This document shows positions 5,321 to 42,964 of a DNA stretch of 64,000 bases, piece by piece (position 1 is the first letter of the stretch; each line of letters begins with the position of its first letter). The position numbers and the translations under genes were made by a program. The notes beneath the pieces were generated by a model. The model did no database searches. It saw nothing but the letters and a program-made list of their open reading frames with translations, and was not told where the DNA came from. The DNA comes from a virus (taxonomy: Duplodnaviria > Heunggongvirae > Uroviricota > Caudoviricetes), in the IMG/VR virus record IMGVR_UViG_2724679538_000004, positions 45,799-109,798 of that record; one strand, written 5' to 3'.

Positions 5321-5344
5321 GTAAGCCTTGTTTAAACACATAAG

Positions 5345-11390: not shown

Positions 11391-11663
11391 AATACTAAAA
11401 GTATGCAACAAACAGCCTGGCGTATTCTACAACTGCAACAACACATTTAATTATAAAACTGCCTATGTTACCTTTTTGCGACGGGATTCCAAAAATACAG
11501 TTCTTGTGGGCCTGATGGTATATTTACAAGCCAAAAATTGCGAACAGGACCAACAATGCGCCTTCTATTTATTTCCTGCCTGTAATTAACACTTTTCCGC
11601 CTGATAGGTTTCATCAAAATATACACAGTGACGAAACAACTTAACAACTGACAGGAGCACGAA

Positions 11664-20369: not shown

Positions 20370-20410
20370 ATATGTAAGAATGTAGTTAGTTGAAGACGAG
20401 AGAAAAGCAC

Positions 20411-21106
20411 ATGACAAATTACAGATTTACGGCATGGGATGATTCACGGCCCCCCTTCAAATTCTGTATGAGAGGAGAACTTGATCAGCCTGCTGGAGCA
20501 ATCATCATCGATAAAGATGTTGTTAAGTTTGAGGGTGACTTTGATACATCAGCAAAGCTTTTCGTTGAACATGTTGCCAAACGCTGGAGTAAGCAGTGGA
20601 AAAGCCTTGAAAAACGCGCTCTTGGATTTGATGTATTTATGGCTGGCATTGATACAGCAAAAAAGGCTCTGGCTGCCGGAAATCCATTAGATCTTGAATC
20701 ACTTTTCAAAGGTGAAATGGCCTCAGCCATGTTCGCCACTATGTTCGCGGGTGAGTTCGTCCGTAGCGGTGCCAGAAACTATCTGGAGCTGTTGTACAAC
20801 GTTCCTGAAATGGGTGATTTTACCGTCACTATTCAACGCAAAGAAGGTAAGACTCCAGGCGAACGTATCGCTGAACTTGAGGCTGTGGTGGACCAGCGTA
20901 ACGGAGAATGTGATCGTTTGGTCAACGAACTTAATGCTCTCCGGGAAGAAAAAATTGGAACGGGTAGCAATACACGCAATGCTGCGGATATCTACTTCCA
21001 GTTAGTCGAGGAATGCCAGATTCCACCAGGCGGATCTCTTGTCGATTACGTCAGACATTTAATGGAGCAAGTGGATTCCAAAGATAAAGATAGTGAGGGA
21101 CGCTAA
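20411..21106 (+). CDS. hypothetical protein
   Basis: ATG 20411 with GAGAG RBS; the tracked ORF begins at an upstream TTG. Confidence 0.45.
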   Translation: MTNYRFTAWDDSRPPFKFCMRGELDQPAGAIIIDKDVVKFEGDFDTSAKLFVEHVAKRWSKQWKSLEKRALGFDVFMAGIDTAKKALAAGNPLDLESLFKGEMASAMFATMFAGEFVRSGARNYLELLYNVPEMGDFTVTIQRKEGKTPGERIAELEAVVDQRNGECDRLVNELNALREEKIGTGSNTRNAADIYFQLVEECQIPPGGSLVDYVRHLMEQVDSKDKDSEGR

Positions 21107-21384: not shown

Positions 21385-21697
21385 TCGAAAACGATTTGAG
21401 GCATGGTGTTGTAAGAATTTAAGGAAGTGCAATCTTTTAAAAATTGGCGGATCAAATGGTGAGTACATTTCGCCAACAATGCAGGCTCGTTGGGAGATTT
21501 GGAAGGCAGCCTCGCAGGAAATGCGTCGAGTAGCCTCCGCATTCAAAACAGGTGAAGCTGTGTCCGCTAAAGCTGCAATAGATACGCTTGATCGCATGGG
21601 GTTTACGTGGGAAGGGGGTGTCTACTGGAAGCCTCCGGTTGGATTAATTCCCTCATATCTCATCCAGCAGCTTAATGCCGAGCACAACCCATCGTAA
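21377..21697 (+). CDS. hypothetical protein
   Basis: 106-aa ORF overlapping the upstream gene by 8 nt. Confidence 0.4.
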   Translation: MTDRKRFEAWCCKNLRKCNLLKIGGSNGEYISPTMQARWEIWKAASQEMRRVASAFKTGEAVSAKAAIDTLDRMGFTWEGGVYWKPPVGLIPSYLIQQLNAEHNPS

Positions 21698-21704
21698 ATA
21701 AATA

Positions 21705-21725
21705 AAGGCCATAAGTTATGGCCTT
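21705..21725. terminator. hairpin (AAGGCCATAAGTTATGGCCTT)
   Basis: Inverted repeat after the stop codon; no clean T-run. Confidence 0.4.
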
Positions 21726-21726
21726 A

Positions 21727-21785
21727 AATAAATTGTTTTCTACCTTTTCTTATTTGTGAAAATAACCACAACTAGAAAACAATGG
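21727..21785 (+). promoter_or_regulatory. sigma70-like promoter (TTGTTTTC ... TGTGAAAAT) plus operator half-site
   Basis: Nearly identical to the promoter at 27652-27718. Confidence 0.45.
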
Positions 21786-21793
21786 AGTTAAGA

Positions 21794-22435
21794 ATGTCTC
21801 GCATTTCCGAAGCACACATGTTCGCCGCTGGCGCTCATGGTGGCGTTGGCCAGAAAAGAAAATATACCGGTGAAGATTATATCAATCACCCGGTTGCTGT
21901 CCGAGAGATTGTTGCATTGCATGACGGAACCGTGGAGATGCAGATCGCGGCGCTTCTGCATGATGTGGTCGAAGACACCAATGTAACCACAGAGATGGTA
22001 CGTGATCACTTCGGTGAGCGCGTAGCTGAAATGGTTCAGGCTCTGACCAATATTGCAAGGCCAGAAGACGGCAATCGAATACAGCGTTTCATCATCAATG
22101 TCCGGGAGCTGGAGCAAAATCTCGACATGCAGACGCGCATGATCAAGCTGGCTGACCTGCTCGACAATACCTCTTCTATCGTGAGTCGCGATCCTGAGTT
22201 TTCAGCTATCTACCTTGCAGAGAAAGAGCTGATGCTGGACGTACTTTTTAACGGGAAGGAGATTGGTACCAACGCTGATGTTGTCGAGTACATGGAGAGG
22301 ATAGGTATAGAACACCCGTTGCTATTAAGCGCAATGGCGAAAGTCACTGAAGGTATTGCGCTTCTGAAACCGGTACTCATCAAACGTTATGAAAAACACA
22401 AATCGCTGATCTGGAGCGCGTGGGAGGCTGCATGA
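21794..22435 (+). CDS. HD-domain small alarmone hydrolase, (p)ppGpp-hydrolase-like (SpoT/Mesh1 family)
   Basis: HGGVGQKRKYTGEDYINHPVAV and AALLHDVVEDT match the RelA/SpoT HD hydrolase signature; GGAG RBS before ATG 21794. Confidence 0.75.
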   Translation: MSRISEAHMFAAGAHGGVGQKRKYTGEDYINHPVAVREIVALHDGTVEMQIAALLHDVVEDTNVTTEMVRDHFGERVAEMVQALTNIARPEDGNRIQRFIINVRELEQNLDMQTRMIKLADLLDNTSSIVSRDPEFSAIYLAEKELMLDVLFNGKEIGTNADVVEYMERIGIEHPLLLSAMAKVTEGIALLKPVLIKRYEKHKSLIWSAWEAA

Positions 22436-22974
22436 AGGTCGAAAAAATAGATGTTCTTTCCTTTGTGTTGACAGATCTGGAACGTCTCGATCCGGTTCGA
22501 GTGATGATTGAAAACTACGAATCTGGTAAGGGAAGAATCACCATCACCTGCTACGGAAAAGCGTGGACTGCGGCTTGGTTTGCTATGGGCGGTGATGATG
22601 TGCAGACGTTCATCAAGCGAGTCAGCAACGACTATCTAATCGACAATTTCGACCCTCAACTGCCAAGAACGGTCGACGATGACAACGATGCAAATCTGCT
22701 TTTCGTGAAGTCAGAAATAATAAAGTTACGAAGAGAGAGAGAAATCGACGCCGTACTGGCTCGTGAAATGTGGGACGAGGCGGAAAACGCCGATGACGTA
22801 AAAGAAAGCTGCTGTTGTTTCGGCGTCGGTAACAAACTGCTGAATCTCTTTGGCGATGATCCGTGGTATGCCTCCTGGCCAACGATACCAAACCCGAAAT
22901 ACCAGTATCTTGAACGCATTGTGAACGCGGTACGTGAAGGGTTGAAAGAGTTAGACAAGTTAGAGGCATCGTAA
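22432..22974 (+). CDS. hypothetical protein
   Basis: ATG 22432 with GGGAGG RBS. Confidence 0.45.
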   Translation: MKVEKIDVLSFVLTDLERLDPVRVMIENYESGKGRITITCYGKAWTAAWFAMGGDDVQTFIKRVSNDYLIDNFDPQLPRTVDDDNDANLLFVKSEIIKLRREREIDAVLAREMWDEAENADDVKESCCCFGVGNKLLNLFGDDPWYASWPTIPNPKYQYLERIVNAVREGLKELDKLEAS

Positions 22975-23468
22975 TGAGAGAGAAAATCAAGAACCCGGTC
23001 GTCGTATTGTATAAACGGGAAAACAGCGATTCTTATGCGGTATCCATCACTGATGGAAGCCAGAACATGCACGATGGCCTGCTAATGGCCTCAGTGTCTC
23101 CTGATGAGTCGGACTATCCCTTCGCCACCTTCGCTATGGTTGGTTACTACATGGCTGCCGAAATTGAGAAGTTACGGGCGCAGAGAGACGCATTGGCGGC
23201 GGAGAATGTGGCATTGAGGTCTAAGGCTGAGGAACTGGCAAATGAAGCGTCAAAAATTTACTCGGCATACAACGCCACTATCACAGAGCCTGACGGGGAT
23301 TTTATAGACATGCAGACACTGCATGAAATGCAGTGCATAGAAACTCCAGCTACCGACGCTTTCCTAGTTGAAGTACGAGCGCAGGGCGTAGAGGTGTTTG
23401 CTGAGTGCGCATACACACTTGAACATCATGATCACGCAGTGGCCTTCGCATCAAAGGAGAGTGAGTGA
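22974..23468 (+). CDS. hypothetical protein
   Basis: 164-aa ORF, TAATG coupling. Confidence 0.45.
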   Translation: MREKIKNPVVVLYKRENSDSYAVSITDGSQNMHDGLLMASVSPDESDYPFATFAMVGYYMAAEIEKLRAQRDALAAENVALRSKAEELANEASKIYSAYNATITEPDGDFIDMQTLHEMQCIETPATDAFLVEVRAQGVEVFAECAYTLEHHDHAVAFASKESE

Positions 23469-27651: not shown

Positions 27652-27718
27652 AAATAAATTGTTTTCTACCTTTTCTTAATTGTGATAATAAACCACACAA
27701 GAAAACAAATTGTTTAGG
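27652..27718 (+). promoter_or_regulatory. sigma70-like promoter (TTGTTTTC, extended -10 TGTGATAAT) followed by operator CAAGAAAACAAATTGTTTAGG
   Basis: Read directly; same architecture at 21727-21785. Confidence 0.5.
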
Positions 27719-31405: not shown

Positions 31406-31424
31406 GATAACAATTTGTTTTCTG
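31406..31424 (+). promoter_or_regulatory. promoter/operator family motif (GATAACAATTTGTTTTCTG)
   Basis: Read directly. Confidence 0.4.
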
Positions 31425-31443
31425 CCTTATCTGATTTGTGAAA

Positions 31444-31854
31444 ATGATTTCACTGAAGCAACTTAATAAGGAAACCATCATGGAACTTGATATCTATATC
31501 GAGACGCAGCCTAAAAACGATCTGAATAACGAGGAATCCAGAAGACAGGTTGCTTACTTCCGCAAGTTCAATGCGCTCGTTGGGTGGATGGAGCGCAACG
31601 TAGGTGAAGTCGAAAATTGTGAGCTTTTAGAATTAACGATGAATGACATTTGTTTTCTGAAAGCTCATTTGATGCACATAAACGAAAGTAATTGCGAAGA
31701 GTACTTACCTACACAGGAAGGGTTTTTCTTCGGCAGTCAGGAGTACGATGAAGGTTACTGGCATGACGTGGATAAGCTGAAAAAACTGGTGGAAGACCTG
31801 ATTAGGAACCACGACTTCCACAATAACAGACTGACATTTTGCGCCTGGTGGTAA
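31444..31854 (+). CDS. hypothetical protein (start uncertain; an ATG at 31480 has the better RBS)
   Basis: ORF in the expected cassette position. Confidence 0.4.
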   Translation: MISLKQLNKETIMELDIYIETQPKNDLNNEESRRQVAYFRKFNALVGWMERNVGEVENCELLELTMNDICFLKAHLMHINESNCEEYLPTQEGFFFGSQEYDEGYWHDVDKLKKLVEDLIRNHDFHNNRLTFCAWW

Positions 31855-32136
31855 ATATGGGGGATTTTAGAAAGCGTCTTAAGGAAAGAACTGAGCAGGC
31901 CAGGAGGCAAAACGCGTTTTCTGTTATCCGGTACGCGAAACAATTCAGTCGGAACAACAAGTCAGTTGAGGAAAAGATCCTCAGCGTAATAGGACGATAA
32001 TTATTGAGGCTACCAGCATGGATAGCCTCACTGACTTTTCTTATAACCGAAGGTTAGTTTTGAAACCTGGCTAATGACTTCCAGTACCTGTCTTGATAAT
32101 TCAGCCTGCATTAACTTCTTTTCTGCCTTATCTACA

Positions 32137-32175
32137 CTGCGATAATTACACCAACAAGAAAACAACATGTTTACG
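32137..32175 (+). promoter_or_regulatory. promoter (-10-like TGCGATAAT) plus operator CAAGAAAACAACATGTTTACGC
   Basis: Read directly. Confidence 0.45.
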
Positions 32176-42917: not shown

Positions 42918-42964
42918 AGAAAACAAGTTGGTTAGTGAATGCAATAAACAAGTTGTTTTAGAGC
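42918..42964 (+). promoter_or_regulatory. two copies of the promoter/operator family motif
   Basis: CAGAAAACAAGTTGGTTAG and AATAAACAAGTTGTTTTAGAG. Confidence 0.4.

Follow-up and report, generated by a model that had tools for sequence, protein, structure and literature searches.

An open reading frame at positions 21782–22435 (+ strand) in the ORF listing of the window, by which we mean the whole 64-kb stretch of DNA analysed here, raises the question of which enzyme it encodes and what this enzyme does for the element that carries it. The original prediction was a stand-alone small alarmone hydrolase (SAH) of phage origin, able to block the host stringent response or alarmone-based toxin defences. 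Translation likely begins at the ATG at 21794, to judge from the Shine-Dalgarno sequence GGAG (21784–21787, + strand) placed 6 nt upstream of it. With this start, the coding sequence (21794–22435, + strand) comprises 213 codons and a stop, and its start and length are identical to those of the orthologue in Salmonella phage SSU5 (213 aa), PaSpo.

Both motifs regarded as hallmarks of the hydrolases of RelA/SpoT homologues (RSH) are present in the frame, YINHPVAV at aa 29–36 (21878–21901) and AALLHDVVEDT at aa 52–62 (21947–21979). The HMM search proposed as a check returned Pfam HD_4 over aa 8–135 with an E-value of 9.5e-19 and a score of 68.1 bits, the curated cutoff being 27.2 bits. The generic Pfam HD profile scored 26.2 bits (cutoff 22), and PHROG 990, "metal-dependent phosphohydrolase", was matched with an E-value of 4.5e-53. 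HD_4 and HD were the only Pfam matches above cutoff; HTH_9 (E 0.079, 13.5 bits) fell under its cutoff of 23.4 bits. The NCBIfam model spoT_relA (TIGR00691) aligned at positions 1–123 of 687 only, which is its N-terminal hydrolase part, and neither Pfam nor NCBIfam revealed synthetase (RelA_SpoT), TGS or ACT regions in the 213-aa protein, in agreement with the claim that a synthetase domain is missing. In comparison with the SSU5 gene, dN/dS equals 0.18 overall, 0.09 for aa 1–148 and 0.33 for aa 149–213, and these values indicate a coding sequence under purifying selection that is strongest on the catalytic core.

The active site was examined by alignment to human MESH1 (3nr1). The first part of the catalytic core (21857–21979, + strand) includes R22, the segment Y29-I-N-H32-P, the metal ligands H56-D57 and the catalytic pair E60-D61, and the second part (22145–22168, + strand) is K118-L-A-D121-L-L-D-N125, with the fourth metal ligand Asp and the substrate-binding Asn. 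Residues R22, H32, H56-D57 and E60-D61 align to R24, H35, H61-D62 and E65-D66 of MESH1, and D121 and N125 to its D122 and N126. In an alignment of 56 homologues reaching down to about 42% identity, all eight positions (R22, H32, H56, D57, E60, D61, D121 and N125) are invariant (56/56). According to established structural work on MESH1 and RelSeq, these positions provide the Mn2+ ligands, the Glu-Asp pair of catalysis and residues that bind the substrate. Absence of the catalytic His/Asp residues had been named as the observation that would speak against an alarmone hydrolase; the His, Asp and Glu residues are all intact.

A phmmer search of PDB sequences with the SAH as a query retrieved exclusively RSH hydrolase domains and small alarmone hydrolases, including SpoT (7qpr/7qps), M. 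tuberculosis Rel (5xnx), human MESH1 (3nr1/5vxa), Lmo0812 (4yf1), T. thermophilus Rel (6s2t), RelSeq (1vj7), P. aeruginosa SAH (6yvc) and C. glutamicum RelH (7qoc). The AlphaFold2 model built on the 56-homologue alignment is all-helical, with 12 helices, a mean pLDDT of 97 and a pTM of 0.92. The best 50 Foldseek matches of this model in the PDB (E <= 1e-3) are all hydrolase domains of MESH1, SAH, Rel or SpoT, and TM-scores normalised to the target are 0.74–0.79 for MESH1 and RelH. By its domain, residues, single-domain architecture and fold, the protein is an RSH hydrolase of the SAH class.

The window region shows 88.5% nucleotide identity to Salmonella phage SSU5. It also matches 277 plasmid records at 80–99%, of which 273 are predicted to be non-mobilizable; among the matches listed, plasmids measure about 104–115 kb, and their sources are Escherichia, Enterobacter, Salmonella, Citrobacter and Shigella. 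On account of the SSU5 match and the 277 plasmid matches, the window is considered part of an SSU5/pHCM2-like phage-plasmid, so that the predicted stand-alone enzyme on a phage element corresponds to a single-domain reading frame on an element of this type. Clinical E. coli, Salmonella Typhi, Klebsiella and Enterobacter commonly carry phage-plasmids of this type. A tblastn search located full-length orthologues of the SAH on 181 plasmids, including Klebsiella-type elements at 52–77% identity, under the annotations "HD domain-containing protein", "metal-dependent phosphohydrolase" and "guanosine polyphosphate pyrophosphohydrolase". As a side observation, copies of metG, apbC and der are present on one close relative plasmid (NZ_CP148383.1, including 74573–79595), along with four clustered tRNA genes (Ser, Thr, Tyr, Asn); a search for tRNA genes in the 64-kb window gave none.

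The SSU5 counterpart, SSU5_099 (YP_006906731.1), is 86% identical to the window SAH over all 213 residues and about 94% identical over aa 1–148. It is the sole locus in the SSU5 genome that matches the SAH query and the single HD_4 locus there, and as the only one it is presumably the PaSpo construct of the published experiments. Full-length identity together with synteny suggests that the window SAH belongs to the PaSpo subfamily, to which Jimmy et al. (PMC7229694) assign the SSU5 protein. The gene is another orthologue of a characterised and already annotated phage SAH, and the reading given here restates published work: publications of 2020 to 2024 already cover the enzyme family, its origin in phages and its ability to neutralise toxins.

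The experimental basis comes from Jimmy et al. (2020, PMC7229694), who list "Salmonella phage SSU5 SAH (PaSpo)" as neutralising, in E. coli, five of five validated toxSAS, namely CapRel, PhRel2, FaRel2, PhRel and FaRel (their Table 1). The same authors class the SSU5 enzyme as a stand-alone phage SAH and propose that phages carry SAHs to bypass alarmone-mediated defence. PaSpo(SSU5) has since served as a tool that permits expression of PhRel2 (Kurata et al., bioRxiv 10.1101/2021.04.30.441581), and it was used to detoxify CapRel-SJ46 (PMC9712102) and FaRel2, in the latter case with leaky PaSpo expression being sufficient (10.1101/2024.07.05.602228, Methods). [quoted passage not shown] The expectation that the gene product hydrolyses alarmones and blocks alarmone-toxin defences gains support from the toxSAS neutralisation known for its 86%-identical orthologue (PMC7229694). 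As regards the target, neutralisation of the toxins stands, but four of the five toxins modify the tRNA CCA end instead of producing alarmones (10.1101/2021.04.30.441581); for this reason, 3'-pyrophosphorylated tRNA is probably relevant as much as (p)ppGpp and (pp)pApp. By analogy with the in vivo neutralisation reported for the SSU5 orthologue (PMC7229694), the window SAH is expected to be a Mn2+-dependent 3'-pyrophosphohydrolase of (p)ppGpp, (pp)pApp or pp-tRNA.

In the literature we found neither in vitro kinetics of PaSpo nor a deletion phenotype in a phage or phage-plasmid, and because of that the native role of the SAH is one that we infer. We likewise infer its substrates, metal, expression timing and benefit in infection. 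In the proposed mechanism, a divalent metal (Mn2+ in solved relatives) would be held by H32, H56, D57 and D121, and a water molecule would be activated by E60-D61. The enzyme would then cleave the 3'-pyrophosphate off substrates pyrophosphorylated at the ribose 3' position, such as (p)ppGpp and (pp)pApp, and most likely also off tRNA with a CCA end to which toxSAS toxins have added a pyrophosphate. In this way it could reverse the arrest of growth or translation imposed by the host stringent response or by defences of the alarmone-synthetase type, for example CapRel of prophages resident in Salmonella, E. coli, Enterobacter and Klebsiella. CapRel defence systems are found in Salmonella and E. 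coli prophages and occur in Enterobacter and Klebsiella, and the genera bearing them coincide with the host range of SSU5-like phage-plasmids. Taken as a whole, we consider it very probable that the locus encodes a PaSpo-type SAH on an SSU5-like enterobacterial phage-plasmid, which hydrolyses 3'-pyrophosphates, counteracts arrest and is expressed from an operon.

Alternatively, the main job of the enzyme could be host takeover rather than counter-defence: lowered (p)ppGpp would leave the stringent response unable to stop the synthesis of rRNA, tRNA, nucleotides and DNA, which would be kept up during lytic growth or plasmid replication. The SAH has the same active site as SpoT, Rel and MESH1, which hydrolyse (p)ppGpp, and Jimmy et al. 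discuss accumulation of alarmones on infection (PMC7229694). A need for unrestrained synthesis also fits a close relative rich in genes for nucleotide and DNA metabolism (nrdAB, thyA, dfrA, dnaE and ligase). However, toxSAS neutralisation is the only phenotype reported for the orthologue, and the action of four of the five toxSAS is not mediated by alarmones. Host takeover as the principal role is possible but on balance unlikely; the two roles are not mutually exclusive.

The physiological substrate could also be a different 3'-phosphorylated nucleotide; NADPH, PAPS/pAp and a nucleotide immune signal are candidates, and toxSAS neutralisation would then be a side activity. MESH1, alike in fold and residues, has NADPH phosphatase activity and also binds PAPS (5vxa, 9chy; 10.1101/2021.04.30.441581), and an orphan bacterial SAH is described as metabolically promiscuous (PMC9765508). 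However, the sufficiency of leaky orthologue expression against FaRel2 (10.1101/2024.07.05.602228) points to an efficient and not an incidental activity, which makes this alternative very unlikely.

The region upstream of the SAH gene comprises several sequence elements. A hairpin, AAGGCCATAAGTTATGGCCTT, with a 9-bp stem and a 3-nt loop, is located at 21705–21725 (+ strand), between the upstream gene and a promoter-like element; the minimum free energy fold of 21690–21800 has a z-score of -3.25, and the hairpin may serve as an insulator or as a terminator that is weak or bidirectional. It is followed by an operator-like palindrome, AAATAAATTGTTTTCT (21726–21741, sequence given on the + strand), which belongs to the AGAAAACAA-N-TTGTTT family; the -35 region overlaps with this palindrome. 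The repeated promoter-like core of 28 nt, TTTTCTACCTTTTCTTATTTGTGAAAAT, occupies 21736–21763 (+ strand) and ends in the extended -10 sequence TGTGAAAAT of the TGnGAWAAT type (21755–21763, + strand). A further operator half-site, AGAAAACAA, is positioned in the 5' leader (21774–21782, + strand), inverted relative to 21733–21741.

These elements recur along the window. The 61-nt repeat family has seven copies, all on the + strand and each ending just before an ORF start, and the 28-nt core TTTTCTNCCTTNTCTNNNTTGYGAWAAT has four matches, with none expected by chance. Copies of the core are at 21736–21763, 27662–27689, 31418–31445 and 32119–32146, and looser copies at 11579, 18584 and 30447. The palindrome AGAAAACAA-N-TTGTTT gives 23 strand-wise matches at about 13 window sites, compared with 0.43 expected, while the pattern with a 2-nt instead of a 1-nt spacer was rejected because of only two, not significant, matches. 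The sites are at 5343, 15741, 17296, 18636, 21726, 27652, 27700, 29315, 30499, 31405, 32157, 32972 and 42918–42958, and most of them lie 20–45 nt upstream of a + strand ORF start. The palindrome family looks like the operator set of one regulator of the early/accessory arm. A generic sigma-70 scan did not call the promoter-like element upstream of the SAH gene, because its -35 region is poor. Promoter activity is nevertheless suggested by the TGnGAWAAT extended -10, by the repeat statistics and by the position ahead of ORF starts, and the palindromes are regarded as putative operators.

The SAH stop codon overlaps the next ATG (ATGA, 22432–22435), which opens a gene of 180 aa (22432–22974, + strand) belonging to the phiTE_072 family (phrog_3451; PF26211 on the Enterobacter homologue). 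The stop of this gene overlaps in turn the following ATG (TAATG, 22972–22976). The original prediction assigned to the SAH its own promoter copy at 21727–21785; the copy is a genuine repeat, but the successive stop/start overlaps rule out a promoter private to the SAH and place the promoter-like element at the head of an operon with the SAH as its first gene. Transcription of this translationally coupled operon would depend on the repeated extended -10 promoter and its operator-like palindromes. Because the promoter is repeated with flanking operator-like palindromes, the operon is probably co-regulated with about ten other early/accessory units.

Translational coupling to an uncharacterised gene leads to the question of whether the SAH is an ATfaRel-like type IV antitoxin or immunity protein for a toxic synthetase of the same element, for instance a toxSAS or a MuF-type (p)ppApp synthetase toxin, as SAHs of the PbcSpo subfamily are in the faRel operon (PMC7229694). 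The downstream partner is of the phiTE_072 family and has no Pfam match at E <= 0.01, hence no RelA_SpoT domain. In the ORFs flanking the SAH there is no RelA_SpoT Pfam match, and the annotations of the 13-kb SSU5 neighbourhood and of positions 1–50000 and 60000–109107 of a close relative plasmid of 109,107 bp include no RelA/SpoT synthetase. As no synthetase is present in the neighbours or annotated in the examined parts of the relative plasmid, as phiTE_072-family proteins are widespread in phages without an adjacent SAH, as the neighbours of the SAH differ in Klebsiella-type relatives, and as the SSU5 enzyme stands in the stand-alone class (PMC7229694), the role of an antitoxin to a cis-encoded toxSAS was rejected as extremely unlikely.

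The surroundings of the SAH gene include RNase H, TerB, Rha/anti-repressor and DUF4942/N6 methyltransferase genes, Ead/Ea22- and Eaa-like genes, DUF551 and a LexA-like S24 peptidase; none of the SAH neighbours had an NCBIfam match. This neighbourhood is typical of the accessory arm of SSU5-like elements. We have also considered obligate pairing of the SAH with the phiTE_072-family gene, and it was discarded: the phiTE_072 family occurs in many unrelated phages outside SSU5-like elements, and Klebsiella-type SAH loci do not have a phiTE_072-family gene. PHROG 3451 (287 positions) matches the N-terminal module of the 20390–21106 protein with its positions 9–103 and the phiTE_072 domain of 22432–22974 with positions 105–282. 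Since one profile spans both, the two window genes correspond to halves of a protein that other phages encode as a fusion, an indication that Ead/Ea22-like proteins are shuffled as modules. On a 110.6-kb contig of a relative, a 39%-identical SAH is preceded at a distance of about 2 kb by a Tad2-like gene (PF11195, anti-Thoeris sponge family), and a DUF4942 methyltransferase gene lies downstream of it; this hints at an anti-defence gene neighbourhood of the SAH in some relatives.

Several related phage-plasmids lack the SAH or carry it in disrupted form, and it is for that reason regarded as dispensable for the basic life cycle. In Escherichia phage Cyrano, the hairpin and promoter are kept at 98.6% identity, while the 1.2-kb cassette equivalent to window 21769–22973, consisting of the SAH and phiTE_072 genes, is missing. 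The Cyrano promoter leads directly into a homologue of window 22974–23468, with the breakpoint just after the -10. In an Enterobacter hormaechei element, an Ead/Ea22-like N-terminal module continues in frame into SAH aa ~76–213, and this fusion has no HD motif. In one E. coli variant, a Walker-A N-terminus is fused to the SAH at the EDT motif. Another E. coli variant, of 231 aa and 62% identity, has HG in place of HD and Tyr in place of H15, and it may be a pseudo-enzyme. These states fit a conditionally useful accessory gene; a pattern of loss and disruption is predicted by counter-defence, without being proof of it.

A more far-reaching and decidedly doubtful proposal is that the SAH and phiTE_072 genes form a mobile, often-lost counter-defence cassette, inserted downstream of the conserved extended -10 promoter of the AAACAA-N-TTGTTT regulon, whose state tracks the arms race with CapRel-type toxSAS and to which phiTE_072 might contribute. 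If true, the Cyrano deletion, the Enterobacter and E. coli fusion remnants and the HG variant would all follow the arms race with toxSAS of co-resident prophages. Natural loss variants could help to address protection by the SAH during infection or lysogeny. More generally, phage-encoded alarmone hydrolases are a plausible counter-measure to toxSAS and to alarmone-based abortive infection.

Comparison with known hydrolases extends from distant to close systems. The Aph1 (p)ppApp hydrolase family (7smg) likewise comprises small stand-alone HD-type hydrolases, acting on 3'-pyrophosphorylated adenosine nucleotides, but its match to the window SAH is much weaker (E 1.5e-06 in sequence, TMq 0.43), and Aph1 has 149 aa. 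The hydrolase domains of long RSHs (SpoT 7qpr; Rel 1vj7, 6s2t and 5xnx) are the best PDB sequence matches (E 1e-13 to 6e-11) and have the HD_4 domain and catalytic residues in common with the SAH. Long RSHs, however, have synthetase, TGS and ACT domains in addition and are under allosteric control, whereas the window SAH is a hydrolase domain only. Metazoan MESH1 (HDDC3; 3nr1, 5vxa, 9chy) is the best structural match, with a TM-score, normalised to the target, of 0.74–0.76 and alignment of all active-site residues, and it neutralises toxSAS in E. coli (PMC7229694). It differs in its sequence (27–29% identity), in its reported physiological substrate, NADPH, and in its length of 179 aa, the window SAH being about 30 residues longer owing to a C-terminal helix at aa 193–212.

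SAHs of the PbcSpo subfamily, represented by C. marina ATfaRel and the SAH of Salmonella phage PVP-SE1, are single-domain RSH hydrolases as well. Both neutralise all tested toxSAS (PMC7229694), and ATfaRel needs its catalytic Asp, as the D54A mutant is inactive (PMC7229694; 10.1101/2021.04.30.441581). They belong to a subfamily other than that of the window SAH, and ATfaRel is encoded beside its toxSAS in a toxin-antitoxin operon, while the window SAH is without a synthetase partner. The closest system is PaSpo(SSU5), with the syntenic order of DUF4942 methyltransferase, Ead/Eaa-like genes, SAH and phiTE_072-family gene, and with the upstream hairpin and promoter-like element common to both loci. 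The two proteins differ by 30 substitutions, of which the C-terminal helices (aa 149–213) account for 20, and the host background is of the E. coli type for the window and Salmonella for SSU5.
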